Part shown: positions 24,546-62,970 of the stretch, in pieces
How the letters are laid out: every line of letters begins with the position of its first letter
Position numbering within the stretch: the stretch's first letter is position 1
DNA from: Leucoraja ocellata
Lineage: Eukaryota
Reading direction: 5' to 3'
Assembly: GCA_036785375.1 (NCBI GenBank)
Contig: JAWMAR010000038.1
Coordinates: 3,596,001 to 3,660,000, forward strand
DNA: 64,000 nucleotides
Translations under genes and position numbers: made by a program
The notes under the pieces: generated by a model
What the model was told of the DNA's origin: nothing
Seen by the model: only the letters and a program-made list of their open reading frames with translations
Databases searched by the model: none

Positions 24546-24573
24546 AAAAATGTCTTGATTACTTTTCATGCAG

Positions 24574-26807: not shown

Positions 26808-26876
26808 GCAATTCGAATATTGGTGCAAGAGAGATTAAGCCCAGAAGCCATTGCAAACGCAAACCGTGCAAAGGAG
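26808..26876 (+). CDS. RTRAF: RTRAF exon 6
   Basis: ttttag|AIRILVQERLSPEAIANANRAKE|gtaaat. Confidence 0.95.
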
Positions 26877-27964: not shown

Positions 27965-28013
27965 GGTTTTACTGTAAGCTTAGAAAAGCATCTACTTGGC
28001 TTTGATACGGGAG
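27965..28013 (+). CDS. RTRAF: RTRAF exon 7
   Basis: tttccag|GFTVSLEKHLLGFDTG+G|gtaagt. Confidence 0.94.
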
Positions 28014-28486: not shown

Positions 28487-28641
28487 ATGCCACTTTGAAT
28501 GAAGCTGCAAGAGTTCTCCGACTGCTGCATATTGAGGAATTACGAGACCTTCAGACCAGGATTAATGAAGCTATTGTAGCTGTTCAATCAATTATAGCAG
28601 ATCCCAAAACTGATCACAGGCTTGGAAAAGTTGGAAGATGA
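28487..28641 (+). CDS. RTRAF: RTRAF exon 8 (last coding exon)
   Basis: tcatag|(D)ATLNEAARVLRLLHIEELRDLQTRINEAIVAVQSIIADPKTDHRLGKVGR*. The eight exons sum to 729 nt in frame (242 aa). AATAAA at 28749. Confidence 0.96.
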
Positions 28642-40953: not shown

Positions 40954-41175
40954 ATGCAGGTGGAGTGCCCGGTTCCGTCCTGGTTCCTGGCATTTCGCGA
41001 CCTTCCTGGTCCACACACCAACAGTAACCACTGTTCCCATGGCATTGCAGAGGACTAAACTCTCCAAACTCAGTGCACCGAGGTACGTACTGATCATCAG
41101 CTGGACTACCTCCGTAGTGCTCCAGGAGGCTGGAGCGCCAACGTTCGCACACTGTTTGTGGTCGCTGGAGGGGCT
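40954..41175 (-). CDS. NID2: Nidogen-2 TY domain exon A (counterpart of human second TY)
   Basis: (E)[73 protein letters not shown]; 222 nt, phase 1-1. Confidence 0.95.
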
Positions 41176-42984
41176 CTGCAACGCATCACACAGCAACTTG
41201 GTTAAAATGTGCAATCTCCTTTTACTGATCAATGTTTCCTTATAATGAACAAATTCACTGCATGGAATGCATACTTCATCCAGCCTTTATTTTTTTCAAA
41301 TATAAAACTTGAAGTATTTTAAGTGTTCTGTTTCAGTCACCTTACTACAGGAAATATGTCATCCAGCTGGATACAGTGCAGAGAAGATTTATGTGGATGT
41401 TGCCAGGACTAGAGGGCCTGAGCTATAGGGAGATTTTGGGCAGGCTAGGATGTTATTCCTTGGAGCGCAGGAGGCTGAGGGTTGATCTTACGGAGTAGTA
41501 TGAAATCATGAGGGAAATAGAATGAATGCACTTGAATGTGAATGAATGTCTTTTTCCATGGAATCAAGAACTAGAGTGTATATGGTGAGAGGAGAAAGAT
41601 TTAGCGGAAATCCGAGGGGCAAGTTTTACCACACAGGTGGGTATATGGAATGAGCTGCCAGAGAAAGTAGTTGAGACAGGTACCATAAGAACATTTAAAA
41701 GACATTTGGACAAGTACATGGATAGGAGAGCTTTAGATGGATGTGGACCAAACATGGGCATGTGGGATGAGATTAGATGGGGCATCCAATGTTTTTGTTT
41801 CATCTGTGTATGTAAATACTCAGTTAAAATGACATTAAAGTAAATACTGAATACATCTTGGTCGGCACAGATGTGTTGGACCATGTGGGTTCGCCCTGTG
41901 ACCACGTGGGTTTTCTCCAGGTGCTCCAGTTTCCTCCCACATTCAAAACACGTGCTGGGTTGTATGTTAATTGGCTTCTGTAAAATTGCTCCTCGTGTAT
42001 AAGATGCAAAAGTGGGATAATGTGAAACTAGTGTACGGGTTATCGATGGTTCGCATGGACTCGGTGGGCCGAAGGGCCAGTTTCTATGCTGTGTCTCTAA
42101 ACTAAATTGTGCAATGGATAAAATTTAGGATCACTTTTAATTACATAATCTGATCAGGAATAGCTTAAAATTTAAAAGGGAAGTTCAAAGTCGTCTTATT
42201 TAAGGGATACTTTTTGAAGAGGGTACATATGGGGTGTGGTTGATTTTGGGAACATGTTTGATAAAGACTCGATGAAAAGGTTTTTGCACAAATCAATTTG
42301 AACAAAAAAACGGTATAGGAACAGGCAAGTTTGAAATTGTTTTGTGTTGGAAATAATGCATAAGTAAATTCAGAGCCAAAAGCCTTAACAGAAAAAACCC
42401 CAATTAAAATTGAGAGGCACAGGGAACTACAGATGCTGGAATCTTGAGCCAAAGACAAAGTGTTGGAGGAACTCTGGGGTCAGACAGCATTTGCAGCGAA
42501 TGGGCAGGCAATGTTTCAGTTTGGAACTCATCAGAAATTAAGAGATCTGTGTCAACCCTCTTTCTTCATAAACTATTGCTCAAATTATATGACTTTTGAC
42601 TTCTCATTTCAAATGTGCAGAGAAACCACTGAGTTGTTGCCATTTTTGGATTAGTAAATCAGTGATCTGTGCTGTAACCAAATTGGGGAGTTGTATACAA
42701 AATCAAGTAGAAGGAACAATTTGTAACTTGACCTGCCAAGTGTTTCCAGCGTTTTCTGGTTTCATTATCAAAGATCAGCAGAGTTTCTCAAGACAGAATT
42801 TAAGGCAACCTGGCCCCAATTCACATCCCCTCAAGGCAAGAATTCTGTTTGCCAATAAAACCATCATGGGAGAGTACAACGTTTAAATAAACATCATATC
42901 CACAAGTTATAAGGATTGAGTCACAACTTGAGAGGTTGGATAGGCTGGGACGTTTGTTCTTTGGAGTGCAGCAGACCGAGGGTG

Positions 42985-44695
42985 ACCTTATTGGTAATGG
43001 CAGAACAATTAAATGAGTACTTTGGTTCTGTTTTCACTAAGGAAGACACAAACAATCTCCCAGAAATACTAGGGGACCAAAAATCTAGTGGGAGGGAGGA
43101 ACTGAAGGGAATCCACATTAGTCAGGAAATGGTGTTAGGTAAACTGTTGGGACTGAAGGCAGATAAATCCCCGGGGCCTGATGGTCGGAATCCAAGAGTA
43201 CTCAAGGAGGTAGCCCCTAGAAATCGTGGATGCATTGGTGATCATTTTCCAATGTTCTCTCGACTCTGGATCACTTCCTGTGGACTGGAGGATAGCCAAT
43301 GTAACTCCACTTTTTAAGAAAGGAGGAAGAGAAAAAACAGGGAATCATGGACAGTTAGCCTTACATCAGTAGTGGGGAAGATGCTCGAGTCGATTATGAA
43401 AGATGTTATAGCAACGCATTTGGAAAGCAGTGACAGGATTGGTCAAAGTCAGCATGGATTTATGAAGGGGAAATCATGCTTGACTCGTTTTCTGGAATTA
43501 TTTGAGGATGTAACAAGTAGAATGGATAAGGGAGAGCCAGTGGATGTGGTGTATCTGGACTTTCAAAAAGCCTTTGACAAGGTCCCACGCAAGAGATTAG
43601 TGTGCAAAATTAGAGCACATGGTATTGGTGGTAGAGTAATGACATGGATAAAGAACTGGTTGCCAGACAGGAAGCAAAGAGTAGGAATTAATGGGTCTGT
43701 TTCAGAATGGCAGGCAGTGACTAGTGGGGTGCCACAAGGCTCGGTGCTGGGACCCCACTTATGTACAATATATATTAACGATTTAGACGAGGGAATTAAA
43801 TGTAACATCTCCAGGTTTGTGGATGAAACAAAGCTGGGTGGCAGTGTGAGCTGCGACGAGGATGCTATGAGAATGCAGGGTGGCTTGGATAGGTTGGGTG
43901 AGTGGGCAGGTACAGTATAATGTGGATAAATGTGAGGTTATCCACTTTAGTGGCAAGAACAGGAAAGCCAATTATTATCTGAATGGTGTCAGATTAGGAA
44001 GGGGGGTGCAACGAGACCTGGGTGCGCTTGTACATCAGTCACTGAAAGTAAGCATGCAGGTACATCAGGCAGTGAAGAAAGCTAATGGCATGTTGGCCTT
44101 CATTGCGAGAGGATTTGAGTTTAGGAGCAAGGAGGTCCCACTCAAATTTTACAGGGCTCTGGAGTATTGTGTGCAATTTTGGTCTCCTAATTTGAGGAAG
44201 GACAATATCGCTATTGATGGAGTGCAGCGTAAGTTCACCAGGTTAAATCTCGGGATGGCGGAACTGACATATGATCAAAGAATGTGTCGACTGGGCTTCT
44301 ATTCACTGGAATTTAGAAGGATGAGAGGGTTTCATAGAAACATATAACATTCTTAAAGGATTGGACAGGCTAGATGCAGGAAAAATGTTCCCGATGTCGG
44401 GGGAGTCCAGAACCAGGGGTCACAGTTTAAGAATAGGGGTAGGCCATTTAGGACTGAGATGAGGAAAAACGTTTTCACCCAGAGGGTTATGAATATGTGG
44501 AATTCTCTGCCACAGATGGAAGTGGAGTCCAATTCACTGGATGTTATCAAGAGTTATAGGTAGAGGAATCAAGGGTTATGGGTGAAAAGCGTATGGGGTA
44601 CTAATTTTTGATGATCAGCCATGATCATATTGAATGGCAGTGCTGGCTCGAAGGGCCGAATGGCCTACTCCTGCAACTATTTTTCTATGTTTCTA
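42985..44695 (+). mobile_element. CR1/HER1-like LINE, degenerate 3' 1.7 kb
   Basis: RT motifs QHGFMKGKSCLT, VVYLDFQKAFDKV, SGVPQGSVLGP; frameshifts; tttctatg tail. Confidence 0.92.
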
Positions 44696-45179
44696 CTGAA
44701 GTGTAAAAGATCATGAGGGGCATGGATAAAGTAAATGCTCACAGTCTTTTTTTCCCCAGTGTAGAGGATGAAAAAACTAGATGACATAAGCGTAAGTTTA
44801 GAAGGGAGAGATTTAAGAAGGTCTTCGGAGACTATTTTCTCATTGACAAGATAGTCCGTATCTGGAATGAGCTGTCAGAGGAAGTAAATAATTATGACTT
44901 GGACAGATATATGGATAGGAAGGGTTTAGAGGACATGGGGCCAAATGCAGGCAAATGGGTCTTACTGAATACGCCAACTTGACCAGCATGGACAAAGTGG
45001 ACCAAAGTGTCCAAGTGTACAGCTCTGTTTATGGAATTTCAAATCATACATGCTTTAGTATCGGATTCCCTTTGTTGCCAAATCATACAAAGCACCAATG
45101 GAGTTATTCTTAACGCAATGACATACTTCCCAAAATAAATAATTCCAACATGCTCCAAAATTGAAGTGCACCAACTGAC

Positions 45180-45425
45180 CTGGCAGCCCACATCTTGGCT
45201 GGTCGCTGCCAGGAAGGGTCCTGGTCCCAGGGATTTCTCGGCCCAGTTCATCCACACACCAGCACTGGCTGGTGCTGTCATGGCACTGCAGAGGTTTGAA
45301 GTTGCCAAGAGCATCACACTGAGGGACGTACACTCCCACAGCGGGGCGAGCTCTGTAGATGCTGAGCTCCTCTTGCAGCTGATCCCGCTGCTCGGCACAA
45401 GGCGCTTTTGGAGCCTCCGTCGGTG
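45180..45425 (-). CDS. NID2: Nidogen-2 TY domain exon B
   Basis: [81 protein letters not shown]; 246 nt, donor gtcagt. Confidence 0.9.
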
Positions 45426-46221
45426 CTGATTAATTGAAAAAAAAACGCCATGCATTTCTAACCAGCAGAAATAAAAATCTTCAGCATGACATTTCTACAT
45501 CCACAATGATAGAGTCTTATAACACAGACACATGTTCTTCAGTCCAACTTGTCCCTATCAAGCAAGACGTCCCATCTAGGCTAGTCCCATTTGCCTGAGT
45601 TTGGTCTATATCCCTCTAAACCTTTCCTATCCATTTACTTGTCCAAGTGTCTGTTAAATATAACATAGAACATAAAAAAGTACAGACAAGGAACTGGCCC
45701 ACAATGTCTGCCCTGATCACGATGCTAAGTTAAACTAATCACCTCTTCCTGCCGTGATCCATATCCCTCTATTCCCTGCATATCCCTGTGCCCATCCCAA
45801 AAGCCTCTTAAATGCCATTTTTGTGTTTGCCTCCACTACCGGCTCTGGCAGCGCATTCCAAGGCACTGACCACTCTCCATGTAAAGAATCTTTGCCCCTC
45901 TCTGAATATTTTTTATTCTTCCAAAACCACAAAATGTAAACTTTTGCTTCTGTTCCTTAAGTCCTGGCAACGTCATCATAAATCTTCATGACCGAAACTG
46001 AACACAATACTCCAAATGCGGCCTCACCAACGCTTTGTTCAACTCACATAATGTCCCATCTTCTATACTTCTATACTCAGCTTTAATATTTAAATATTTG
46101 TTATAATAAAAATTCGAAAGTTTTGAAAATTTAGTTTTTAACCATTAGATGCACCAATATGCCGTCGCAATGAAAGCACCGGTAACGCAACATCAGTGAA
46201 TTAATTCTAACTCTGACTGAC

Positions 46222-46467
46222 CAGTCTGCCCACAGCGTGGTTGACCCCTGCCAGGACCTCTGCTGGTCCCAGGAACTTCCAGCCCCTCTACGTCCACACA
46301 CCAGCAGTAACCGGTGCTGCTATGGCATTGCATTTCCTGGTAGTTCCCTTCTTCATCACACTGGGGAATGTAGACCCCAACGGGAGGATCAGATCCATGC
46401 GCGCTCAATTCCCTTTGCACTTGCTCATGGTGTCGAGCACAGGCATTCTTGGGCTGTTCAATTTGTT
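46222..46467 (-). CDS. NID2: Nidogen-2 TY domain exon C
   Basis: [81 protein letters not shown]; 246 nt, donor gtcagt. Confidence 0.9.
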
Positions 46468-46884
46468 CTAATCAGGAAAGAAAGGGCACAATCAAGAGTG
46501 CTTAATCATCATATATACGCTGACAACAGAACAATGAAACGCTCACTTGCTGCAGTTTACGCAAGTTGGCCCGTAAACGCATAACACAGATATTATACAA
46601 TACAATGAATTAAAAATCAACAATACTAGTGCAAAACCTAAATTCAAGGTGCAAACAAAATCAAGTCCATAGCAGATCATCATAAGATCATGTGATAGGA
46701 GCAGAATTCGGCCCATCAAGTCTACTCCGCCAATCAATCATGGTGGATTTATCTCGTGGAGTCTATCTAGATCATAGTTGCTGAGGTAAGAAACTGGGTC
46801 GAAACATTTATGTAAAAATCATTCCGTTTGGTTCACTGCAGAATCATAGCAATGTCAGCAAATCATCCTGCCGCGCACGTGATG

Positions 46885-46994
46885 CACGCATGGTGCACAT
46901 TACACACGCATGGTGCACATTACACACGCATGGTGCACATTACACACGCATGGTGAACATTACGCGAGCATGGTGCACATTACACACGCATGGT
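46885..46994. repeat. 20-bp minisatellite (cacgcatggtgcacattaca), about 5.5 copies, within a Harbinger-like MITE remnant ending ~47101
   Basis: Units read directly; downstream end aagtggggcaggccct-taa resembles the TIR of the 56584 element. Confidence 0.8.
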
Positions 46995-47558
46995 TCATGG
47001 TGACGTAGGCAGTGACGCGTGGTGCCCAGGATTTTGGTATGTACAAAATCTTCACGCGCTATCTGCGTAACGTGCAAATGATGCCCAAGTGGGGCAGGCC
47101 CTTAAGGAACAAGTTGTGAATTCACATTAAAAAAGTTCAAAGAAGAGAGAAACAGCAGTGGAGAAAAGAGATCAGTATAATTTCCTAAACATTCTGAAAT
47201 AGGTGGGAGTCATTCAGCACAGAAACAGGTTCTTCAGCCCAATTTGTCCATGCTGACCATGATGCCCACCCTAAGCTATTCCCATTAGCCTGAATCTGGC
47301 CAATATCCTTCCTATCCACAAACCTGTCCGTGTCTTTTAAATAGTTTAATTGGATCTGCCTCAACTACAATCTACAATCTATGACAGCTTGTTCCATCTG
47401 TGTGAAAAAGCTAGCCTTCAGGTTTCTATTAAAATTTTCCCCTCTTATCTTAAACCTATGCACTCTAGTTCCTGATTCCTCTATCCTGGGAAAAAAGAGT
47501 CTCTGCATTCACCCTATCTATTCCCCTCATGATTTAAAAAAGTCATGAATGGAACCAA

Positions 47559-47853
47559 GGGCAGCACAGTGGCGCAGCAGTAGAGTTGCTGCCTTACAGC
47601 ACCAGAGACCCAGGTTCGATCCTGACTAAGGGTGCTGTCTGTACAGAGTTTGTACGTTCTCCCCATGCCTGCGTGGGTTTTCCCCGGGTGCTCCAGTTTC
47701 CTCCCACACTCCAAAGACGTACAGGTTTGTAGGTTAATTGGCTTCGGTAAAGATTGTAAGTTGTCCCTGGTGGGTAGGATAGTGTTAGTGTAGGGGGATC
47801 ACTTGTCAGCGTGGACTCGGTGGGCTGAAGGGCCTGTGTCCGCACTAAACTAA
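47559..47853 (+). mobile_element. tRNA-derived SINE (HE1/V-SINE type)
   Basis: A box gtggcgcagcagt, B box ggttcgatcc, V-domain-like core gtttgtacgttctcccc...ttcctcccacactccaaagac, (ctaaa)n tail. Confidence 0.85.
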
Positions 47854-48219
47854 ACCAGATGGTGGGAGGTCATTACGACTGACAGACTACACTCTACCAT
47901 ACATCTACCACTAACAACCAATTTTGCTGAATTAAACCTTTACGAGGATGTTGCCAGGACTAGAGGGTGTGAGATATAGGGAGAGGATGAGTAGGCTGGG
48001 TCTCTATTCCTCGGAGAGCAGGGGTCTCTTGCCCACAGTAGGGGAATCAAGGACCAGGGGTGAAGGGGAAAAGAATTAATAGGAATTTGAGGGATAACTT
48101 TTTCTCACAAAGGGTGGTGGGTGTATGGAACAAGCTGCCAGAAGAGGTAGTTGAGGCTGGGACTATCCCAATGTTTAAGAAACAGACATGTACATGGATA
48201 AGAAAGGTTTAGAGGGATA

Positions 48220-48636
48220 CTAGACCAAGTGCAGACCCGTTGGGTCTGCTCCCCCAATGCAGCCGTTCCCTACCCGTAGCCCCCACGGGAGACGTGGTCC
48301 TCCAACTCAAGCAGCTCAGGAATCAGCAATGCGGCTGTTTTTAAATGGCGTCTTTGAGGTGAGATGCGGGCGCCAGCAGCCGTTATGGTCGCTGGCCAGC
48401 AGGAGGCGACAAAATGAGTGAGTGGGGGGAGTAGGATTTTATTAAAAATGTGTACATAAACACAACAAAATTTAATCAGGAGTGGATACTTGGAATGAAA
48501 AGTGAAATCTCTACTGAAATGGAAAAAAATCAGGGCGTTTGTGGGTGGGGTGTTGGCGTAGCAACGAATCAAAGGCTGCCAGCCACAAGTCAGAAACACA
48601 CACAGCCAGACACACAGAGTTTTAAATATAGATGGA
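48220..48636 (-). mobile_element. Non-autonomous Helitron
   Basis: Minus strand 5' TC, 3' hairpin GCAGACCC-AAC-GGGTCTGC then ACTTGGTCTAG. Inserted between A and T of a CR1 remnant with no TSD. Confidence 0.85.
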
Positions 48637-48758
48637 TGGATCAAGCGCAGGCAGGTGGGACTAGTGTAGCTGGGACATGTTGGCCGATGTGGGCAAGTTG
48701 GACTGAAGGACCTGTTTCCACACTGTATCACTCTTTGACTATGAAAGTACCGACTGAC

Positions 48759-49001
48759 CTGCTGACCCACAGCGTATTTGACCAGTTCCTGGTGGGGTCC
48801 TGGTTCCTGGAATCTCACGCCCATTTTCGTTCACACACCAGCAGTGGCCTGTGCTGCCGTGACATTGGATAGTCCTGAACCTCCCTGCTTCATCACACTG
48901 AGGGATGTGGAGTCCCAGTCGCTGAGATCCATGCCGGCTCATCTCTGCTTGCAGTCTCTCTCGCTGCTCCTCACAATCAGTCTGGGGACGTTCATTGGTT
49001 G
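48759..49001 (-). CDS. NID2: Nidogen-2 TY domain exon D
   Basis: [80 protein letters not shown]; 243 nt, donor gtcagt. Confidence 0.9.
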
Positions 49002-52000
49002 CTGATCATTCAAAATAAGATTGATTAATAAAGCAGACTGACTGGTCACATCACAGCCTAACCTCCCCACGATCAAAATGATCTATAGAAGATGTGTCTG
49101 AAGAAGGGTCTCAATCTGAAACGTCACCTATTCCTTTGCTCCAGAGATGCTGGACCCGTTGAGTTACTATAGCTTTTTGTGTCTATCTTTGATCTATAGG
49201 AGACCCCGACTCAAAACAGTAGCCAGCTCAAAGACCCACACCACCCTGGGCACACTCTCATCTCAGGAAGCAGGTACAGGAGCCTGAAAACCGTGACCTC
49301 TTCGTTCACGAACTTCTTCCCAACAACCATCAGACTCTTGCAAACTACAAAACATTAACATCAGCAACTCTGATCTATGGACTGTTTCTTTGGTTGTTCA
49401 ATGGACTAGTTTTGCACTATTACGATCACCTCATATTATGGTTATTAATTTATTGTGTCATTGATCATTCAGGGGGCAGTTATAATGCTGCAACTAAACA
49501 TTTAATTGTTCAGTTGCCGGTACATATGACAAGGAAACACTCTTGATGTCTCACTCTATATAAATTGTCATCAGTCCATTTATTAGGGAAGGACAAGGTA
49601 ATTCGCCTAAGCACAACATGCTTTTATATGACTATTCATCTGATATTCTTGACAAATCCATTTAGTTTGATCCAAATTATATAATTACTTATTCTCATCA
49701 AAGGTTAGTACCTTCAACTGCTACATGGCTTCTGAAAATATTTAACATTATATCTGCAATTTATTTTCCACCAAATGATACTTTGGAGATATTTTGAGGA
49801 AGTATTACGGAATTAGTTTTTTAGTTGTAGTTTTAAAGGGTGTGCATGAGTCCGCACCAACCAGATATCACCCGTGCACTAATTCTATCCTACACACTAG
49901 AGGCAATTTACAGAAGGCCATTAATCTTCAAATTAACCTATAGTTCTTTGTAGTGTGGGAGGGCACCGGGACATCCAAACTCTGTACTCCATAGTCAGGC
50001 TTGAACCCGGGTCTCTGGCACTGTAAGGCAGTAACTCTACCACTTTGCCACCCAGGATCAGCCAGTTTTTAACTAATTTGAGATACATAGAGTTCAATAA
50101 AAGTTGCGATCCAAATGGGCTCACCTCCATTTCCATCTGTTTTTGGTACACTGTTAGGCTGATTTGAGGGATCTGTTGGCTATGGATCAATGAATAAATA
50201 AACTGGCTTTGAAAGTATTACAAAGATTTGCAGGTCTGGTGGATCAGTTGTGTTTCATCTCGAGCACACTGTGCATGGACTCTGAACAGTCCGAAAGCAT
50301 TGACTTCAAAACGCAATACAACTTGAGTCAGATACTTAGCACATTATCTCCAACTGATTGGTATTCTTTCATGATTACATATACAAATGTATGAAACAGT
50401 GTTCATGTTTTCAACACTTAATAAAGTTCATATTTAGGATGTGTTCGCAGATTAATTTAACTTTGAGAAATATTTGTAGGGACTGTTACAGCAACAGAAC
50501 CCTGCAGAAGTTTATCCTGCTTCGTAACTGGATCTTGTTTAGTGAAATGTGATTTATGAAGGACATTTACATATTATAATGTGATTAGAGTAAGTTTGAA
50601 TTGTAATTAGTTTTTACGCAAAAGGATTACAGAATACGAATAATGCAAGGAAGGTAATATTCAATAAGGTTAATATCATGGAACTCACGAAAAAATAAAG
50701 TTGGTCTCATTTTCTGATGACATTTAAAAAAATGTTTTATCCATTACTCAGTGTGCCCACTGATGCAATATAAAAATTAAATCAAAGAATCAAGAGTGTT
50801 TAATAATTATATGTAACAGTGACAGAATAATGACATTCTTACTTGCTGCAGCCTAACAGGCCCATAAATGCAAACACACACAGATAGTAAATAATAATCA
50901 GTAATACCAGATAACCATTCCAGTGTAAAACCAAAGTGTCTCATAGTGAAACAGAAGACACAGTCTATTGAAGATCATAGTTGCTGTGGTTCGTGCTATG
51001 TAGCGTTCAAGGACTGAATCAGTTTTCAAGAGCTTGAACACTCTTTCCAAGGTTGATATTCTTAGTAAATACCTACTTCATTGATAACAAGAAAGACAAA
51101 CAGCGGTGGATCAGTATATGAGAAGTATTCTGAGCTGATCGACAAAATGAGACACTGTGTAGTTTAGCAAAATATCTAATGGGAACTGGATATTTGGAGG
51201 CAGAAAAGTTAAGAATGTCACAACTCAAATCCAATGACAGGGACAAGCACTTCATAGTCACAAGAGTACAAATGAACAGTTTCGCTGAACAGCTTCCCTC
51301 AAACACACATGGGTTTAAAAAGTTCAGTGACATAGGTGTAATTTAACAAACCTGGAAATCACTTTGAACTTTTCTCAGAGTCAGCGTCATGCAGCATGGT
51401 AACAGGCGCCCTCGCTCAACTCCTCCCTGACAACCAAAATGCCCCATAAACTAGTCCCATTTGCCTGTGTTTGGCCTAAATGCCTTTTTCGTCCCATTTA
51501 CCCCTGGCAACTTTAAAGTACGACAATGTTATTTCACTTATTTATGAACAACTAATGATGAACAGATACCGGTATACCAGAACCAAACACAGTCAGTCAA
51601 TGAGAAAAAATATGTACAAATCCAGAATCAACAAATGTACGCCCTGGGTAGGCGAAATTGGGGTAAATTTACCCCCAGGTTGAGAACCCTTCCTCTAAAC
51701 CTTTCCTATCTTTCCAAGTGTATTTTAAATGTTGTTATTGTACCTACTTCAACTACATCCTCTAGCAGCTCGTTCCATATACCACCACCCTCTGTACAGA
51801 AACGTTGCTCCTGGGGTTCCTATTCAACCTTCCCCTCTCACCTTAAACCTATGATCCTACCCTGGCATTCATCTTATCTATTCCTCTCATGACTTTATAC
51901 ACCTCTATACATAACCCTCAGCCTCTTGCACTCCAAGGAACATATTTCTAGCCTGCTCAACTTCTCATCCCCTCAAGTCCTGGCAACATCCTCATAAAAT

Positions 52001-52069
52001 AATACCACAACATCTTCTGTTTTTCTAAAATACACGATGCATTGGTTGAATGGAGTATTGACTAGTCAC

Positions 52070-52315
52070 CTGACAAGTCACAGTGCGGTTGAGCTGTTCC
52101 AGGTGGTGTCCTGGTGTTTGGGACTTCCTGTCCGTTTTCGTACACACACCAGCAGTGGCCTGTGCTGCTGTGGCATTGCATCAGCCTGAAGTTCCCTTCT
52201 TCGTCACACTGAGGGATGTGGTGTCCCAGCAATGGTTCAGGTCCATATGCCCTCATCTCCATTTGCAATCTCTGTTGTTGCTCTTCACACGCAGTTTTAG
52301 GGCGTTCATTGCTTT
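52070..52315 (-). CDS. NID2: Nidogen-2 TY domain exon E
   Basis: [81 protein letters not shown]; 246 nt, donor gtgact. Confidence 0.9.
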
Positions 52316-53906
52316 CTGAAATGTAAGAATTGAAACTAGTTGTGAAATGATTCAAAGCCAAAAACAATTGCTAAAATTAGCCCTTGTAATGCTCTTTCTT
52401 TATACCCCCCTCCCAATGCAATCCATGTAATTCACTAATTTATCGATTCAATCCATCTGAATCCCTGGAATAACCCTGCAGACATCACATATTCTGTTTT
52501 CAACTGATGGCCGTTCAGGACGCAATCCTTGATCATTTACGATTCTTTTTAATTACCGTAAAGACTTGAGGAATTATTAGAACAACAAAAACATGAATGA
52601 AAAAAACACATTTGAAACATTTGATGATTCAATTGGCAAGGAGGGAAATGAAGAATGGAATATTTAAACGGAAGGAATTTAAACAAAAATAACATTGGTC
52701 TTATCATCGATTCTCGATTTTTTATCCCTTCCACTGAGCATCTGCTGGTTGCGTCTGTTTATGAATTATTGTGGAAAAACAAAAACATTTACAAAGCAGA
52801 AACTTTATTTTAATGTTCAATTTAATTCAGAACAGAAAGAAACCAAGGAAACCACAGGGGAAAAGATATGGATATTGTTTGGCAGTAAAAGTAACCTTTG
52901 AGAGATGGGAAGGAGGTTGGATAGAGATATCATCTAGAAAGCACCAGAGCTTTGAGCAGCAAGCTAAGGTAGTTAAAGGAGTTATTTTAAACCAAGATTA
53001 CCTTCAGTTCAAAGCCAACTACTTGTAGGCCGTTTGTAATTAAATGTGATATTATATGCCAAAGCCAATTGCTTCCATGATAATCAGCTTTTATAGTCAT
53101 GGAGTCAAGGAGCAGTAGAACATGGAATCAGGCCCTTTGGCCCATCTTGTCCCCGCTAACCAAGTTGGTATATTGGACTCGTCCCATTTGCCTGCATTTG
53201 GCCCATAGCCGCTAAAAACTTCTTATCCACATTTCTGTCTAAATGTCTTCTAAAAATCCTAATTGTGTCCACTTGTATTACTTCCACTGGCAGGACATTC
53301 CAGATATGGACGACCCTCTGAGTGAAAGGTTGTCCCTGAGGTCCCTCTTAAATCTTACTCCTCTCAAGCCTATGCCCTCTTGTTTTAGAATCTTCTACTC
53401 AAGGAAAAAGACTGTGAGTATATACTTTAACCATATCATGCACAATCTATACACCTCAATACAGTAACTCCTCAGCTTCCTACGTTCCACAGAAAAATGT
53501 CCCATCCTTTCCCTATGTCAAGTCAAGTTTATTCGTCACATACACATATGAGATGTGCAGTGAAATGAAACGTGACAATGCTTGCGGATTGTGCAAAAAC
53601 ACTACAAAACGGAATGGAACAGAATCACATATTACATATTTGTGGGAGGAAAAAAATATAGTTTTTTTTAAGTCTGCAAGCCCAGGGAACATCCAGGTGA
53701 ATCTCTTCTGCATCCTTTCCAAATCAATGACTTCCATCCTATAGCTGGGCAACCAGAACTGTTCCCAGTACTCCAAGCATGGTCATACATTTATGTAAAA
53801 TGTTAAGGTGCTTCACCAAATTTTTGGTTAGATTTTCCAATGAACAAATATTTGAACTTTTCCTTTTTCCCCCCACAGTATTGAAAATTTACCCTCAAAT
53901 ACTGAC

Positions 53907-54146
53907 CTGTTGGCCCACAACGCGGTTGAGTGGTTCCAGGTGGTGTCCTGGTCCCTTGGACTTCCTGCCCATTTTCGTACACACACCAGCAGTGGCCTGT
54001 GCTGCTCTGGCATTGCATCGGCCTGAAGTTCCCTTCTTCGTCACACTGAGGGATGTGGAGTCCAACAATTGACCCACGCAGGCTCACCTCTGCTTCCATC
54101 CGCTCCCTGTGCTGCTCACAGGCTGACTTTGGCTGCTCATCAGCTG
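53907..54146 (-). CDS. NID2: Nidogen-2 TY domain exon F
   Basis: [79 protein letters not shown]; 240 nt, CAGCAG tandem acceptor, donor gtcagt. Confidence 0.9.
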
Positions 54147-54488
54147 CTGATGAAACAAAACGGTTTGGAAACAATCACCAAATAAAGTTTAAATCTCTCA
54201 AAGCGATTAATGAAACTTCTTGTATATCCAGAGTGGCCAAAGTTGGTTATTATTTCTAATGCAACTTCAGAGGTGTATTAAATGAATGCAGCAAAAGACA
54301 CCAAACATTTTAGTTCATATATTGCACATATTCTGCAGAGCACACCCCTTGGAACAGGACCTGTACTCGCTGGAGTTTAGGAGGATGAGGGGGAACCTCA
54401 TTGAAACTTACCGAATAGAGAAGAGTTTGGATAGAGTGGATGTGGAGAGGCTTTTTCCACTAGTGGGAGAGTCTAGGACTAGAGTTCA

Positions 54489-55537
54489 TTAGACAAAGTG
54501 GGACCCGTTGGGTCCCAGTCACACGGGAGGCCTGATCCCCCAACGCAACCCATTCCCCAACACAATATTCCACCACTCACCCATAGCCCCTAACTGCGCA
54601 TGCACAGCTCATTTCCCCTCATCCCCGAGCACTCACTTCCCCTCTTCATCTGTGGGAGTGGAGGAGGGGAGGGAAGTGGGATGTGTGGAGGGGGGTGGGG
54701 TGGGATGGGAGGAGGGGTGTGTGTGGATGGGGAGGTGTAGGGGGGGAGAGGGTGGTGTGGGGGGAGTGTGGCAGGGGCGGTGTGGGGTGGGGGTAGGTGT
54801 GTATGTGGGTGGGAGGAGTGTGGAAGGGGGTTGGCGGGATGTGGTGGGGGGGGTGTGGGCAGGGGGGGTTGTGAGGGGAGAGGGGTGTGTGGGCAGCAGG
54901 GAGTGAGCTTGGTGAAAAGACAGGGGAAGAGCCATGGGGGGGGAGGGGGGCTTCACGGGGGAGGGGGAGGAGCCAGCGAGGGGGACCAGAAGGGGTAGAG
55001 GCTGTAATTGGCGTTGCGATGGGGACTCACTGCGGGCGCTGGTCGCTGATTGTTCTCTTCCACCGGGATCAGAGTCTCCCCTTTACATTTGGCAACATCT
55101 CCGACCTTGGACTGGGCTAGGTTTCCCACGCTGGGCTGTGCTGGGCTGCTACTTGGGGCTGGGCTGCTGCTTGGGGCAGGGCAGGGTGGAGCTGCTTGGG
55201 TCCGGTTGGGAACCTCCACCGGCCATCCTCAGCTCCAGTAAAGACGTGATGGCGCAGGAAGGGGCGGACCGTCCCGGGGAGTGCGGGAAGAGACTAATCC
55301 GTGCGGTGCTGACTGGCAGGAGAAGAGATCGATCTGCGCATGCGCGGTTTTTAAGAATTTTAACCTCACTAACTTTTACAACATTCAACGGATCGGAACA
55401 AACCTTGACGCACTCGCAGCACAGAACATTGAGTGAACTGGTGAAAAATCACAGCGCCATCACAAACCGTTTTTTGCGCAAATAGAAAGACCGCCAAACC
55501 GGAAGATAACAAGATCAGAGCTTTAGTCATGTATAGA
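54489..55537 (-). mobile_element. Non-autonomous Helitron (related family)
   Basis: 5' TCTATAC; 3' hairpin TGGGACCC-AAC-GGGTCCCA then CTTTGTCTAA. A|T insertion into a CR1 remnant. Confidence 0.8.
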
Positions 55538-56583
55538 TAGCCTCGAAATTAAAGGACATTACTTTAGGAAGGCGATGAGGAGGAATTAGACAGATGGTGG
55601 TGAATCTGTGGAACTCTTTGTCATAGGAGGCTCTGGAGGCCAAGTTAATGGATATATTTAAGGCAGAGATAGATAGATACTTGATTAGTATGGGTGTCAG
55701 AGGTTATGGGTAGAAGGCAGGAAAATGGGATTAGGAGGGAGAGATAGATCAGTGATGATTGAATGGCGGAGTAGACGATGGCCCAATGGACTTACTCTGC
55801 TCCTCTCCCATGACAATTTCACACAATATTTGTAATTGTGCTACCCAGTAATGCTACTCAACAAAGATTATATTTTCAACCCATGGTCTACATTTGATTA
55901 CAAGCATCACTGCCACTACTTTAGATTTTAAGAAGGTCTTCTCGGTACAAAGTTTTTTTATTGAGTGTTCATTGTGAAGGGGATGTGGCAACATTTCCAT
56001 CCTGGTTTGTAAGTGAAAGGAATTTGTTTGGCAATGTGATTACACAGTACATTCTGTCCTTATCTTGTGACTGGGAAGACAATTTGAATTGAAATTCAAT
56101 GATTTTAAGTCATGGGTTCGTTGCCAGAGAAAAAATATAAGAAATACAGAAAATATTCAATTAGAAACAAGAGAAATACAGAAATGGGACCATTAAAATA
56201 AGAACAACAATTTATTTTGAGGGGTGTTCATTCTTTAAGATCTAAATGTTCCATCTGACAATTCTGACATGTTTTGCTACACCATTCACTGACCACAGAT
56301 ACATTTCTGACCCACGGGCTAAAGGAATATATCATTTTGTAACGTTTGAAACTTTGAGTAAGAGGTGAATTATTTTGATGAAAAAGTGCAAATCGGTGGA
56401 ACAGCAGTGGAAAAGGGCACTCTATAGATGCAAAGAATGCAAGAGGTATTCCAAAAGAGTTTACAATAGATCGCAGATAGGATAGGGGAAACCGTCAGAA
56501 GAACCAGATCTTTTCAATGTAGATGTAGACAAGTATCTGTCGTTCAACTTTAACCAGTAGTTAGAAGCACTTTGCAAGCGTAA

Positions 56584-57176
56584 AGGCCCTGTCCCACTTA
56601 CGTGTCCTTGGCATGCAAATTATTCGACCTCGTCGTCGGGTTGAGGCACACGGGCATCGTGTGGCCGAGTGGGGCCGGTCCCACTGAGAAGTGCCGGAGG
56701 GGTATGGAGTTGTGCGCAGTATCGCGCGGCGCTCCGAAATTTTGGAGCGAACAAAATCTTTGCGCGCCACCGGCCTATCGCGTAACTGACGGCCAAAGTG
56801 GGACAGGCCTAAGACCCTGGCACGACGCAACAAAAGGGGCCAAGAAAATTGAAGATAGACACAAAATGCAGGAGTAACTCAGCGGGACCAGCAGCATCTC
56901 TGGAGAGAAGGAATGGATGACTCTTCGGATCAAGACCCTTCTTTCAGACTGAAAAAGAGTCTCGACCCGAAACGTCACCCATTGCTTCTCTCCAGAGATG
57001 CTGCCGGACCGCTGAGTTACTCCTGCATTTTGTGTCCATCTTCAAATGATGTCACGCGCTCCAGACGGCTCTGCGGACGCATGGTCGCGCGCGACCTTCG
57101 CGGGACCATCGCGGCTCAATTCGACTACAAGGTCGTGTAATTAGCATGCCAGGGACACGTAAGTGGGACAGGGGCT
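56584..57176. mobile_element. PIF/Harbinger-like MITE
   Basis: ~50-bp TIRs (AGGCCCTGTCCCACTTACGTGTCC...) with TAA/TAT flanks; nested hairpin at 56851-57043. Confidence 0.8.
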
Positions 57177-57330
57177 TATGAGATAACTGCTGCCTGAATC
57201 ATTCATTATCATGCTAATCAACTTTTACGCAGAACACAGGAGCCTCACTACAACAATAATTAAAGTCTCTTTGAACTCCTCATGTTTGCCACAACAGTGG
57301 TCATTTCATTTAATTATAATGGTAACTGAC

Positions 57331-57576
57331 CTGTCGTCCCACAGCGTGGTTGAGCTGTCCCAGGTGGTGTCCGGCTCCCTGGGACTTCCTGCCCATTTTC
57401 GTACACACACCAGCAGTGGCCTGTGCTGCCGTGGCATTGGATCGGCCTGAAGTTCCCTTCTTCGTCACACTGAGGGATGTGGTGTTCCACAAGCGGCTGA
57501 GACCCACGCAGCCTCACCTCTGCTTCTAACCGATCCCTCTGCTGCTCACAGGCAGACCTTGGCTGCTCACTGGCTA
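57331..57576 (-). CDS. NID2: Nidogen-2 TY domain exon G
   Basis: [81 protein letters not shown]; 246 nt, CAGTAG tandem acceptor, donor gtcagt. Confidence 0.9.
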
Positions 57577-57950
57577 CTGAACAAACAAACACAAACCTGC
57601 TGTTGAAATAGTCAATAATACAAATGCAGTTTTTTTCAAAGTGGACATAATCTGCTGTTCTTAAATAAGTGCAATTTGAGGTGGCTTTGTGTGGGGAAAC
57701 GGACCCATTCCACTGGAGCCTGGTTTTCCATTGAGCATCTTTGCTACAGCATTGTGCTTTGATGGTGACTTCATTGAGGTGCCCAAGATGAGGGGCATGG
57801 ATAAAGTGAACAATCACTGACTTCCCCAGCAGGGTAGAGAAATCAACAACTAGAGGGCACAGGCTTAAGGTGAGAGGGAAAAGATTTAAGAGAAATCTCA
57901 GGGGCAAATTAGGGCAGGCATGGTGGCACAGTGGAAGAGTTGCTGCCTTA

Positions 57951-60900
57951 TCAATCAATCAATCAATCAATCAACCTTTATTGTCATCTTGCAAGCAACA
58001 GTTGTTACAGTGCAAAATGAAAAGACGTTTCCCAGTGAATAGCGGAGCATCGCACATGAAATTTAAACACTTCACACATAATAACACTAAAAACAATCCA
58101 GTCCCTGATGGAACAGTATAAATAGTTAAAAGCAGGTAAAAAAAACCCAATGTTAAAATTCAATAAACCAATCATAAAAATGTCCGGGGCCGCTGATTTG
58201 AGTGGCCAGTGCCAGTATTAAAGTGTCCGTGCCAGCCGCAGAGTCAAGTCAAGTGACTGTGAGTGCAGAGTGACTGTTTAGCAGCCTCACAGCCTGTGGT
58301 AGGAAGCTGTTTAGCAGCCTCGTAGTCCGGGCTTTGATGCTACGATATCTCTTGCCTGATGGCAGGAGATCCAGGTGTGCGTGGAGGGGGTGCAGTTTGT
58401 CCTTGGCAATTCTCTGTGCTTTCTTCAGACAGCGGCTCTGGAACAGTTCTTGTACCGAGGGTAGGGAGACGCCAATAATCCTCTCTGCTCCCCTCACTAC
58501 CCTCTGCAGAGCCTTCCTGTCCGAGCAGTTGCAGGTGGAGTACCACGTATTTATGCAGTACGTGAGTACAGACTCCACCGTGCCCCTGTAGAAAGTCCTG
58601 AGGATGTTGGTGGGGAGTGAGGCCTGTTTTAGTTTCCTCAGGAAGTGCAGTCGCTGATGGGCCCGTTTGACGGTCCCAGTGGTGTTCCTGGACCAGGTGA
58701 GGCTGTCCGTTATTTGCACACCGAGGAACTTTATGCTCTCCACTCTCTCCACTGCAGTGCCACTAATGTTGAGCGGTGTATGCTTTGGCTGCGCCCTCCT
58801 GAAGTCGACAACCATCTCCTTAGTTTTGTCGACATTCAATTCTAGGTTGTTTTTGCCGCACCAGTCCACCAGTTGTTCTACTTCCTCCCTGTACATTGTT
58901 TCGTCATCTCCACTGATGAGTCCCACCACTGTAGTGTCGTCCGCGAATTTTATGATTTTATTTTCCCTGAATCTGGCAGCACAGTCATGTGTGAGCAGTG
59001 TGAACAACAGCGGGCTGAGCACACAGCCTTGAGGGGAGCCGGTGCTCAGCGTGATCGAGCCTGAAGTGTTCTTGCCAACACGGACTGACTGCGGTCTCTC
59101 TGTCAGAAAGTCCAAGACCCAGTGACAAAGGGTGGTGTTGAGGCCCAGCAGGGTTAGTTTCTCCACAAGTCTCTGTGGGATGATGGTATTAAACGCTGAG
59201 CTGAAGTCAATGTACAGGATTCTGGCGTATGTGTTCTTGTGTTCCAGATGCGCGATTACTGTGTGCAGCGTGGTAGAGATGGCATCCTCTGTAGAGCGGT
59301 TGGGGCGATAGGCAAACTGTAGGGGGTCTAACGATGAGGGGAGGCTGGCAGTAATGTGGGGTTTCACCAGGCGTTCAAAACACTTCATTATTATTGGGGT
59401 CAGGGCGACAGGGCGGTAGTCATTTAGGCAGGCAACCACTGGTTTCTTCGCTATGGGGATTATCGTGGAAGTTTTGAGGCATGTGGGGACAATGGCCTGA
59501 CTAAGGGAGATGTTAAAGATGTCTGTTAGCACATCTGCTAACTCCTCAGCACATTCCTTTAGCACACGTCCTGGGATGTTGTCGGGTCCGACTGCTTTCC
59601 ACGGGTTGACCTTAGACAGGATTCTCCGTGTGTCCATTGTGTCTATGGTCAGGACTGGCTGGTCGGTTTGTAGGCAGGGGCTGGCTCTCCTCTTGGGTGT
59701 GGTGTTTGCTGCATCAAAACGTGCAAAGAAGTTGTTTAGTTTATCTGGGAGAGAAGTGTCCGTGTCGGTTACCTGCTGCCTTGCCTTGTACCCCGTCAGT
59801 GTTTCAATTCCCTTCCACATCCTCCTGGTGTCTCCTGTGTCGCAGAGGTGTCCCTGGATTTTCCCCGCGAAGGCACGTTTCGCTGCCCTGATTCCTTTTC
59901 CCAGTGCAGTCCTGGTGGATCGGAGAGCGGCTGTGTTACCGGCTCTGTAGGCTGCATCACGAGCCCTCAGCAGCGAGCGCACCTCTGCTGTCATCCATGG
60001 CTTTTCGTTACCACGTGCAGTGAAAGTTTTCATGATGGTGACATCCTCAGTGCACTTGGCAATGTAGCTGGTTACAGTCTCTGCGTACTCCTCGATGTTG
60101 ATGAGGTCATCATAGGATGCTGCTGTCCTGAACACATCCCAGTCAGTGTGCAGGAAGCAATCCTGCAGTACTGAGGCTGCTCCCTCTGGCCAGACCCTGG
60201 TGTGTTTTCTCTCCGCTCTGACTTGTTTTTGCAGAGGTCTGTAGGCTGGTGTTAAAAACACTGAAATGTGGTCCGAGTGGCCCAGGTGAGGGCGTGGGGC
60301 TGCCTTGTAAGCCTCTGGGGTGTTGGTGTAAACCAAGTCCAAGATGTTCTCTCCCCTGGTCTCAAAATCCACATATTGCTTGAATTTTGGGAGCACAGTC
60401 TTAAGGCTGGTGTGAGTAAAATCCCCGGCCACCACAATGAAGCTATCAGGATGTTTGGTCTGGAACTCACTGACGGCGTCATGCAGGGCTCCCAGTGCTT
60501 CGTTGGCCTTAGAATTTACATTTGCACTTGGAGCAACATATACAGCCACAACAAAAACAACGGAGAATTCCCTCGGCAGATAGAAAGGCCGACATTTCAC
60601 GATGAGGAATTCTATCAGCGGAGAGCAGTGTTTCCCGGCTATCGTAGCGTTCACACACCAGTCCTTGTTTATGTACAAGCACAGGCCTCCACCTCGGCTC
60701 TTACCAGAGCTAGCTGCCTCTCTGTCCGCACGGAATGATGTCATTCCCTCCAGCTGTATTGCCGTGTCCGGGATATTGCCGTGGAGCCATGATTCAGTGA
60801 AGACAAACACACAGCAGTCTCGTATATCCTTGTATGTTGTCCTGAGAAGACGCAGTTCGTCGAGTTTGTTGTCCAGGGAGCGGACATTAGAGAGGAGAAG

Positions 60901-61322
60901 CGAGGGCACTGCAGGTCGGGTGGGGTTGGCTGTTAGCCTAGCGTGAATGCCTGCTCTTTTCCCCCGTCTCCGCCTCACGTAAGAGCCTGCTCTTTTACCC
61001 TGTTTCTGCCTCCTCTCACACCGCTTGCGTCTCCTCCTCCTCCTCTCTCTCCTCTCTCGCCTCCTCTCTCCGGTCGTAGTCATATCTGCGGCCGATATGT
61101 TCGGCCTCGCAGCCGGTAGTAGAAGTCCATAGTGGCGTATTTGGTCTAAATCGCACCAAAACGCGCCTTTGCTACTACCGTGGTTTGCCCCGATGTTTAG
61201 GAGCATGTTCCTGCAGTACATATATCTTGGACAGACTGGACAAGACACACAACACTCACTTTTAAAAGCTCCGACTATCTCCCGAGGGGCCGCTGCGACT
61301 GTGCGCGCCGCCATCTTGGATT
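57951..61322 (-). mobile_element. Full-length Rex1/Babar-clade non-LTR retrotransposon
   Basis: Single intact APE+RT ORF. 3' AATAAA followed by a (TTGA)n tail. 5' end AATCCAAGATGGCGGC. Splits a tRNA-SINE and leaves CTTA on both sides. Confidence 0.88.
58249..61314 (-). CDS. APE endonuclease-reverse transcriptase of the Rex1/Babar LINE (1021 aa as called; true start uncertain)
   Basis: APE motifs SNVRSL, FTESWL, AGDF, HSDH. RT motifs [40 protein letters not shown]. Rex1-type C-terminus [30 protein letters not shown]. Confidence 0.93.
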
Positions 61323-61479
61323 CTTACTGCTAGAGACCCGGGTTCTATCCTGACTATGGGTACATACTGTACGGAGTTTGTATGTTCTCCACGAGACCTG
61401 CCTGGGCTTTCTCCGGGACCTCCGGTTTCCTCTCATACTCCAAAGACATATAGTTTTCCAGATTGATTGGCTTGACTGC

Positions 61480-62335
61480 CAAAAGATTCCGCTAGCGTTA
61501 CAGAGGATTGGGCCGTGGACACGGAGAGGAGGTCGGCTAGAGAGGAGAGGGGAGAGAAGGAGGGAGGAGGTGAGAAGAGGGCGGGGGGGGGGGGGGGGGG
61601 GCCGAGTGAGTGGCCTGCGAACAGCAGAGAGAGACAGCACCGGCTTGACTCTTTGGAAAACGGCAGCTGAGTGAGCGGGTGGGCGGGGGACGCCTTCATA
61701 AGCTGCACGGTCAGCGCAGACAAGCTTCAGCGCGTGAGTGCCTCTGACCCTGTGATTGAGCAGAACAAAGATCCTATAGCGGAGCGCAGTGTTGCTGCAG
61801 AACTTTCTCGATCCTTCTGCGCCTTTTGTAGAATGGGGGGGGGGGGGGGGGGGGGGGGGAGGGCTAACGTACCTCGTTGAAAACTGCGCATGCGCGTTGA
61901 CAGCAGCTGCATTAATCCAGAGCGGTGGGGGGGGGGGGGGGGGGCACGAGGAAAGGCATTGTGAGGTCAGCAGCTGGGCAACCTTAATATTTTTTTTAAA
62001 TGTCAGTTTGGTGATAAATTTTAGTAAATATTGGAATTATGGACCAAATTTATAGAGGATTGGATTTTTGAAATGTAAAAATGTCACTGTTATTGTAACG
62101 TCAGCACCTGGGCAGCGGTCAGATTTTTAAAAAAAGGTCAGATTAGTCAACAATTTTAATAAAATAGTCAGGAAAATGTACCAAATGCACAGAGGAGTGG
62201 ATTTCTAAAATCACAAGGAAAATTTCTACTCAAATATGTAAATATTTCCCCGTTTCGGCATTGGTTTATGAGGAGATATGTTTCACAGGCAAAATCACAC
62301 ACGCACGCACAGAGTTTTAAAAGTATATAGATAGA
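61480..62335 (-). mobile_element. 3'-truncated Helitron-like element
   Basis: Right end cacagagttttaaaagtatataga matches the 5' end of the 48220-48636 Helitron; hairpin/CTAG end not found. Confidence 0.55.
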
Positions 62336-62589
62336 GATGATAGATTTGGACAGAAGTATGGATACAATGGGTTTAGAGAGCTATGGGCCAAATGCAGGAA
62401 AATGCCGATCAGTCCACAAATTGATCAGTATGGACAAGGTAGTTGAACTCTCTCGTTTTCACCCAGCCCACAGCTAACAATGGACCGCTTCCTTGACCAT
62501 CGTTACTTTTTTGCATATCTTTCACTTCTTTGTTCTATATCTCTCTCTATAGTGCCGTCTATATCTCTCGTTTCTCTTTCCACTCTCTG

Positions 62590-62970
62590 GATGAAAACGT
62601 TTTGTTCTCATCTCAGTTTTAAACGGCCTCCCCTTTATTCATAGACTGTGGCCCCTGGTTCTGGACTCCCCCATCATTGGGAATATTTTTCCTGCATCTA
62701 GCTTGTCCAGTCCTTCTATAATTTAATACCTCTATAAGATTCCCTCTCATCCTTCTAAATTCCAGTGAACACAAGCCCACTCTTCCCAATCTTTCCTCAT
62801 ATGACAGTCCTACCATCCTGGGGATTAACCTTGTGAACGTACGCTGCACTGCCTTAATAGAAAGGATGTCCTTCCTCAAATTAGGAGACTAAAATTGCAC
62901 ACAATACTCCAGATCAGGTCCCACAAGGGTCCTGTAAAACAGCAGAAGGACCTCTTTACTCCTATACTCT
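62590..62970 (-). mobile_element. CR1 fragment
   Basis: FTRLIPRMVGLSYEERLGRVGLCSLEFRRMRG. Confidence 0.82.

Follow-up and report, generated by a model that had tools for sequence, protein, structure and literature searches.

Nidogen-2 (NID2), a linker protein of basement membranes, binds collagen IV and perlecan at its G2 end and laminin at its G3 end. Mammalian NID2 has the NIDO-G2F-EGF-TY-G3 plan, lacks a C-terminal EGF and retains a conserved thyroglobulin type-1 (TY) domain proximal to G3. It carries one or two TY domains, and its rod spans about 320-330 aa, compared with about 1,720 aa in the little skate. The rod of nidogen-1 has been described as flexible (PMC4227867). Zebrafish Nid2a likewise possesses extra TY modules in the rod, but fewer than the skate gene: six according to a remark in a figure legend (10.1101/2021.11.24.469833) and eight in the RefSeq isoforms X2/X3. 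These modules fall into a separate ray-finned clade (SH-aLRT 95). Related modules occur in the thyropins (MEROPS I31; saxiphilin, p41 invariant-chain fragment), which share the type-1A six-cysteine pattern and the QC and CWCV motifs with the skate modules.

The same gene with the same module order is annotated in Leucoraja erinacea (little skate; nid2a, XP_055496377.1, isoform X1, 2,723 aa) with 20 TY domains and in Amblyraja radiata (nidogen-2, XP_032883184.1) with 19. Compared with these, the Leucoraja ocellata locus holds one or two more copies in the youngest block of the array (T16-T19, counted from G3). Modules T01-T15 correspond rank for rank to those of both species, with 0-5 differences in 64 positions relative to the little skate. 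T07 diverges more from its counterparts in both species than its neighbours do, possibly as a result of gene conversion.

The TY exon array of skate NID2

Seven open frames bearing the CWCV motif are present on the minus strand of the 64,000 nucleotides analyzed here (the window). In the order of transcription, the exons lie at 57576-57331 (exon G or T07, seventh from G3, 246 nt), 54146-53907 (F, T06, 240 nt, of the type with a 24-residue first loop), 52315-52070 (E, T05, 246 nt), 49001-48759 (D, T04, 243 nt), 46467-46222 (C, T03, 246 nt), 45425-45180 (B, T02, 246 nt) and 41175-40954 (A, T01, 222 nt, the conserved G3-proximal TY). Every length is divisible by three, every exon is of phase 1-1, and GT..AG borders mark all seven introns between exon G and the first exon of G3. 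In a profile search of the genome each exon matched PF00086 with E <= 6.4e-18 (2.8e-22 for G and 3.6e-24 for B), so that the seven TY matches cannot be ascribed to chance. The first-pass annotation had described seven intact, in-frame TY exons with canonical splice sites, and open frames, splice sites and profile matches all confirm this description. In exon A, RC replaces QC, and the codon of the sixth cysteine is split by the splice junction and finished in the next exon.

Six exons encoding G3, a YWTD beta-propeller, follow in open frame on the same strand (40597-40428, 36491-36362, 35482-35311, 34639-34482, 34365-34242 and 32689-32559); two of the three that were scanned matched Ldl_recept_b. 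A likely terminal coding mini-exon ending in YGRK-stop lies at 31562-31552 on the minus strand; it was the only candidate found and matches the RefSeq C-terminus. From T01 through G3, 365 of 368 aa are identical to L. erinacea NID2 (XP_055496377). In the skate model the propeller is C-terminal, with the TY modules before it and no EGF after it; NID1 is reported to have an EGF6 after G3, which NID2 lacks (10.1101/2021.11.24.469833). The TY of exon A fell into one clade with the G3-proximal TY of tetrapod NID2. An RLL-family gene (RTRAF; window 16700-28638, plus strand) is arranged tail-to-tail with NID2, and a 7tm_1 exon lies on the far side (L013:6743-7807), its label as a prostanoid receptor being an interpretation. 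This agrees with the order RTRAF - NID2 - prostanoid receptor of the human genome. G3 identity, the C-terminus without EGF, the clade and the neighbours thus all support the earlier assignment to NID2, and we hold this identity, together with the origin of the array as explained below, with high confidence.

The seven exons of the window represent the 3' end of a larger array, as had been suspected. The intron upstream of exon G (57577..64000, minus strand) runs off the window edge, and 14 further intact TY exons (T08-T21; PF00086) follow on the same strand at 64047-102500 in continued window numbering (contig ~3,698,500), along with one broken copy near 80,900. This brings NID2 to 21 intact TY exons and one broken copy, and all 21 modules exceeded the Pfam cut-off for PF00086 in the genome profile search. 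EGF and G2 exons had also been expected past position 64000. One Ca-EGF exon was found there, upstream of the TY array (121833-121706 in continued numbering, L006:7706-7833, minus strand; 98% identical to the little skate); a second rod EGF exon of NID2 was sought upstream and not found. For the NIDO (G1) and G2F (G2) exons there was no orthologue-level match on the NID2 contig or elsewhere in the assembly, and the NID2 models of relatives do carry both domains. The best NIDO/G2F matches (contigs C170 and C95) were rejected as NID2 at an identity of at most 59% and are read as NID1. Three 200-N gaps lie upstream. T21 is followed by a 200-N gap. An inverted, frameshifted copy of a receptor exon lies ~3 kb from another assembly gap.

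Splicing, origin and constraint

Splicing of exons B-G into NID2 had been proposed from the window. We examined contigs of four runs whose source is a close relative (2-5 differences per exon); the RNA status of these runs was guessed without a DNA control, and none of the runs listed as matching the stretch is on record as RNA. The 796-nt GT..AG intron between B and C is skipped in contigs of three of the four runs (X1, X2 and X5, from three studies), and in contigs of three runs the 3' letters of exon D (48761-48799) are joined to exon C. The contigs end 92 nt past exon D, which equals the length of the 3' part of exon E whose 31-mers are all absent from other copies, and this length and break point suggest that E is spliced onto D. 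Beyond exon B they extend for 1,191-1,869 nt; in the model, 1,118 coding nt lie between B and the stop codon. The joints seen directly are D-C and C-B, and neither B-A nor T06-T21 within one mRNA; the proposal held for D-C-B. Run X17 covers neither exon B nor exon C, although other runs from its organism match best of all; it is uninformative either way. Depth over the TY core was ~7-9 times the single-exon figure, a value unsuitable as a copy number.

Most TY copies are 60-97% identical to one another. The youngest, T16-T19, are carried by a 1,718-bp tandem unit present in ~4 copies, which are 95-99.8% identical, intron included. The dN/dS of the TY copies is 0.24-0.31 (about 0.3), indicating purifying selection, and all six cysteines are retained in T02-T21. 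G3-proximal TY domains from 12 species form one clade (SH-aLRT 99) and the other copies group by lineage. The tree thus upholds exon A as the orthologue of the mammalian G3-proximal TY, with armadillo and mole-rat standing in for human. Exon B (T02) clusters with the TY domains that rank second in other elasmobranchs. Exons B-G had been read as a six-fold amplification of a TY1-like module: their derivation from the other TY stands, but the amplification is 20-fold. A single clade of all cartilaginous-fish repeats received a support of 0.91 in the listed part of a 286-row FastTree, was absent from a 91-row IQ-TREE (two changes, long branches meeting) and is not claimed.

The array likely arose through repeated tandem duplication of a phase-symmetric TY exon. 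Unequal crossing-over and gene conversion would then add, remove and homogenise the G3-distal copies, with the G3-proximal TY presumably staying fixed next to G3.

TY copy numbers across vertebrates

NID2 carries 11-27 TY domains in all 18 elasmobranch species retrieved. The long array is located between the rod EGFs and G3 in Scyliorhinus canicula (27 TY; XP_038634606.1), Narcine bancroftii (15; XP_069773131.1) and Heptranchias perlo (11). When G3 alone served as the query, so that length of the array gave no advantage, none of the 120 matches listed was a short elasmobranch NID2. T01 and T02 are positionally orthologous in most elasmobranchs, and past the first few the inner copies are lineage-specific. 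Elsewhere we counted seven TY domains in the chimaera, 2-7 in amphibians, 1-5 in amniotes and one or two in mammals; the 2-23 of ray-finned fishes are biased upward, the matches being ranked by score.

The idea that the expansion is a novelty did not survive this comparison, since similar arrays are present in 18/18 elasmobranchs and in many bony fishes. It is not special to L. ocellata and is already contained in public gene annotations. For this genome alone it has little significance because the annotated gene of a close relative has 20 copies. In print we found the zebrafish figure-legend remark but no account of the pattern across the clade; Novinec 2006 may treat TY numbers of fish nidogens. 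A single module, amplified again and again, takes the NID2 rod between G2 and G3 from ~320 residues in mammals to >2,200 in the catshark. This range represents a natural experiment on whether the length of the nidogen bridge matters and on what nidogen TY domains do.

Possible functions of the array

On balance we lean towards the view that skate NID2, with 21 TY exons likely generated by tandem duplication, forms a very long flexible tether between G2 and G3. Taken by itself, the tether role appears the most likely function of the array, at close to an even chance. The array would add about 1,600 residues in the form of disulfide-bonded beads on linkers of 12-15 residues, and its job might be the reach and extensibility of the cross-link more than a new binding activity. 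Inter-module linkers measure 12-15 residues at each of the 19 junctions in the model from the little skate. Location within the rod, which is described as flexible in nidogen-1, supports a tether. A zebrafish fragment in which only the final two TY domains out of six are present is reported to bind hemicentin-1 with a mouse-like KD of 30 nM (10.1101/2021.11.24.469833), which argues that the extra copies are unneeded for this interaction. Against a plain tether, it was the TY exon that was amplified in each lineage and not the rod EGF exons (~2 EGFs in skates compared with ~4 in armadillo by a rough motif count), a pattern that a TY-specific activity fits at least as well as length. Copy number also spreads widely, over 11-27 among elasmobranchs and 2-23 among ray-finned fishes, which one would not readily expect of a tuned spacer. 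Of the two functions suggested by the first-pass annotation, we would rank a longer bridge above a protease-binding array.

The latter could take the form of a multivalent thyropin, whose modules would bind and inhibit, or act as decoys for, cysteine cathepsins and so protect the basement membrane. We consider this unlikely, if credible. G-x3-P precedes the second cysteine in 18 of the 21 modules (absent in T01, T07 and T10), with the same spacing as the loop-1 Gly/Pro of thyropins that has been proposed to be important for protease recognition (PMC10889554). The motif is shared with frog saxiphilin-type proteins; it is present in the amplified copies of zebrafish and Xenopus and absent in armadillo, mole-rat and G3-proximal TY domains. 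Saxiphilin, reported as a nanomolar inhibitor of cathepsin L/B and papain (PMC6584486), also gave the highest-scoring match to a single domain when solved structures were searched (74.7 bits), and the restriction of the expansion to TY, sparing EGF, would fit. However, loop 1 between Cys1 and Cys2 comprises 24-26 residues in T02-T21, whereas frog saxiphilin-type proteins have 20-21 and p41 no more than 21, and binding is reported to be impeded when loop 1 is larger (PMC10889554). According to PMC3429489, entactin did not inhibit papain and cathepsin S cuts the TY region of human nidogen-1. The skate modules further differ from thyropins in being embedded in a matrix linker. In its widest form, this reading would make fish and amphibian NID2 a splice-tunable array of cathepsin-inhibiting thyropin modules, with 11-27 copies kept in sharks and rays, separate re-amplification in ray-finned fishes and frogs, and loss of copies and of the loop-1 glycine in mammals; we regard that as doubtful. 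If a thyropin array did exist, nidogen-2 would not only link the basement membrane but also shield it from proteases.

It is rather improbable that the array reflects near-neutral turnover, in which a symmetric exon drifts in number by unequal crossing-over and selection removes only misfolding copies. Close skates do vary in copy number (19, 20, 21 and 21), with changes in the youngest block, RefSeq isoforms differ by whole modules, and one or two TY domains suffice in mammals. Such drift is hard to align with the elasmobranch data, as none of the 18 species fell below 11 TY domains and the G3-only search listed no short form. Furthermore, 21 of 22 copies are intact, and every NID1-like locus in this genome gave a single TY match.

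We think it quite improbable that the array serves as a multivalent binding platform for some ligand in the matrix, for instance hemicentin or a fibulin. Domain swaps indicate that TY domains contribute to the affinity of nidogen for hemicentin-1, but the last two zebrafish TY domains plus G3 already reach mouse-like affinity (10.1101/2021.11.24.469833), and the literature consulted named no ligand for the distal copies.

That the array is an artefact of assembly, or consists of pseudo-exons that are never spliced, is extremely improbable and already largely refuted: the units of T17 and T18 share 99.8% identity and one may be a false duplication, a gap follows T21, 5' exons are missing and the aberrant receptor-exon copy lies near another gap, but most copies are far less alike (60-97%), 19-21 modules are also present in three further skates that were assembled independently, in matching order in the two checked, and D-C-B is spliced in contigs of the relative. 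The near-identity of T17 and T18 would at most lower the count from 21 to 20.

TY exons of NID2 and their splicing

Six-frame translation revealed seven frames with a CWCV motif on the minus strand between 40954 and 57576, and a genome search matched PF00086 to each of the seven thyroglobulin type-1 (TY) exons (E <= 6.4e-18). Exons A to G (41175-40954, 45425-45180, 46467-46222, 49001-48759, 52315-52070, 54146-53907 and 57576-57331), numbered T01-T07 from G3, the YWTD beta-propeller, are 222-246 nt long, all divisible by three and of phase 1-1, with GT..AG at 7/7 introns as far as the first G3 exon. The seven TY exons of the first-pass annotation are thus real. Downstream lie six G3 exons and then a likely stop-codon mini-exon, and the reading frame of the spliced model is uninterrupted from exon B to the last G3 exon. 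Skate RefSeq models start the module of exon E (acceptor at 52315) with two extra residues, and an upstream acceptor may have been lost in the window sequence. The C-D intron holds a 20-bp tandem repeat (5.5 copies, 46885-46994); elsewhere the introns abound in LINE, SINE and Penelope-like fragments.

From T01 to G3, 365/368 residues are identical to RefSeq nid2a of the little skate (Leucoraja erinacea), a match that assigns the genome to the rajid skates. The C-terminus lacks the additional EGF characteristic of NID1, a distinction drawn in the accessible text of 10.1101/2021.11.24.469833, and NID1-like loci on two other contigs (C170 and C95) have a single TY match apiece. An RLL-family gene (RTRAF/C14orf166; 16700-28638, plus strand, three exon matches) stands tail-to-tail with NID2, and a prostanoid-receptor-like 7tm_1 exon lies upstream (domain match at L013:6743-7807, plus strand). 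The human gene order around NID2 matches these neighbours. A frameshifted, inverted copy of the receptor exon (L012, about 6,200-7,000, minus strand) sits roughly 3 kb away from a gap in the assembly; the assembly holds many loci in two copies, which suggests duplications that are false or were left unpurged.

Splicing was followed in sequencing runs; among the 24 listed for the stretch, 0/24 are on record as RNA, and four with a guessed RNA origin were mapped to 45060-46700. In three of these (X1, X2 and X5, from three studies of a close relative whose exons each show 2-5 differences), a contig lacks the 796-nt intron between B and C, with the break at the intron's GT..AG ends, and the 39 letters adjoining exon C are identical to those at the 3' end of exon D (48761-48799). 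All three contigs stop 92 nt past exon D; since the last 92 nt of exon E are the part without a 31-mer in common with any other copy, we infer that E is spliced to D in the relative. The contigs run 1,191-1,869 nt past exon B, where coding to the stop needs 1,118 nt. A loose-end motif occurs in 10/21 TY exons, all T06 and above, and in none of T01-T05, showing that these runs also contain upstream-type copies. The fourth run gave zero exon cover within 45060-46700. Of the proposed splicing of exons B-G into NID2, the D-C-B joints were thus recovered and the B-to-A joint was not seen. The array is spliced, and it is larger than first noted.

Extent and origin of the array

TY matches in the whole-genome search numbered 39, of which 21 form a single run on the window's contig. 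In the 200 kb adjoining the window, also examined, lie 14 further intact exons (T08-T21), bearing out the earlier suspicion of copies past its edge. Between T11 and T12 sits a broken, T08-like copy with a frameshift and a stop (L002, about 80,913-80,753 in continued window numbering, minus strand); as the models of little skate and thorny skate (Amblyraja radiata) lack it, this exon is probably dead, and not the product of a local error. An assembly gap of 200 N begins about 430 bases past T21. Even so, the array is probably complete here, since T21 resembles the TY that comes first in both relatives' models and the sequence upstream of the gap holds a Ca-EGF exon sharing 98% identity with little skate. 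With 99.8% identity between the units of T17 and T18, the true count is 20 or 21. Searches of this assembly for the NID2 exons encoding NIDO and G2F found none.

The youngest copies, T16-T19, lie within a 1,718-bp tandem unit that is 95-99.8% identical including the intron. DNA identity is 76-99% among T06-T21, 60-75% among T02-T05 and 50-57% between T01 and the others; this fall toward G3 indicates that the oldest part of the array adjoins G3. In a tree of 91 domains from 12 species (74 columns, many forks open), the G3-proximal TY form a single clade (SH-aLRT 99), with the remaining copies clustering by lineage (ray-finned 95, amphibian 97), in broad agreement with a FastTree of 286 domains from 26 sources. 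Independent expansions and an old array homogenised by conversion would both fit the tree, which cannot tell between them. The probable mechanism is unequal crossing-over between the symmetric TY exons. Paralogous exons show a dN/dS of 0.24-0.31, and all six cysteines are retained in T02-T21.

Between T07 (57331-57576) and the corresponding little skate module 5/64 residues differ, against 0-2 for its neighbours; T07 is nearest in DNA to T21 (96%, 45 kb away), possibly through gene conversion. A 24-residue-loop subtype at every third module (T06, T09, T12) and in T08 hints at older multi-exon block duplications.

Occurrence across vertebrates

The expansion had been taken as possibly novel to this genome. 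It is not: NID2 has 11-27 TY in 18/18 elasmobranch species (median 20, longest model seen per species), with 20 in little skate, 19 in thorny skate, 21 in Rhinoraja, 15 in Narcine, 27 in catshark (Scyliorhinus canicula) and 11 in Heptranchias, all counts here and below coming from automated gene models in which repeats may be counted inaccurately. No short elasmobranch NID2 appeared among the 120 matches listed by a G3-only search, which gives long arrays no advantage. Rank by rank, T01-T15 correspond to the modules of little skate; differences between the skates fall in the youngest block. We found up to 7 TY in Callorhinchus, 3 in Latimeria, 2-7 in amphibians, 2-5 in birds, 1-2 in turtles and alligator and 1-2 in mammals; ray-finned NID2 has 2-11 among models of <=2,000 residues and 7-23 among the best 93 matches by score. 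A long array is the ordinary state of shark and ray NID2, already in RefSeq. For zebrafish Nid2a, six TY have been published (10.1101/2021.11.24.469833). The expansion goes unmentioned in the accessible portions of PMC3464141 and of a 2024 review (PMC10972974), the literature covered being mostly outside subscription journals; the interest lies in this under-described clade-wide pattern and in the putative function of the array.

Frog saxiphilin-like models hold 12-15 TY, and as many as 26 matched stretches occur in teleost 'thyroglobulin-like' models (P0001-P0003, P0122, P0123 and P0126, a frog and teleost set); by these models, TY exon amplification occurs in several unrelated vertebrate genes. 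Similar modules in teleost carboxylesterase and hemopexin models (P0090, P0193/P0307) may reflect exon shuffling.

Predicted role of the array

Nidogen attaches to collagen IV and perlecan through G2 and to laminin gamma-1 through G3, according to the accessible text of 10.1101/2021.11.24.469833 and PMC10972974. The skate rod between these two domains spans about 1,720 residues vs 320-330 in mammals, its modules being under constraint and joined by linkers of 12-15 residues. As the nidogen-1 rod appears flexible (PMC4227867, in part), and a zebrafish fragment with the last two TY alone matches mouse in hemicentin-1 binding (10.1101/2021.11.24.469833, in part), we rank first a long flexible G2-G3 tether, to which we give close to an even chance.

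The main rival, that the modules are thyropins inhibiting cathepsins, is rather unlikely: 18/21 modules keep the loop-1 G-x3-P (motif as in the accessible text of PMC10889554) and the best single-domain match is saxiphilin, a proven inhibitor (PMC6584486, in part), but loop 1 is 24-26 residues vs 20-21, and mammalian nidogen-1 is reported, in the part of PMC3429489 available, to be cut by cathepsin S and not to inhibit papain. Near-neutral turnover of TY copies ranks after this and is unlikely too. Least probable is a putative multivalent matrix-binding array, which we consider improbable.
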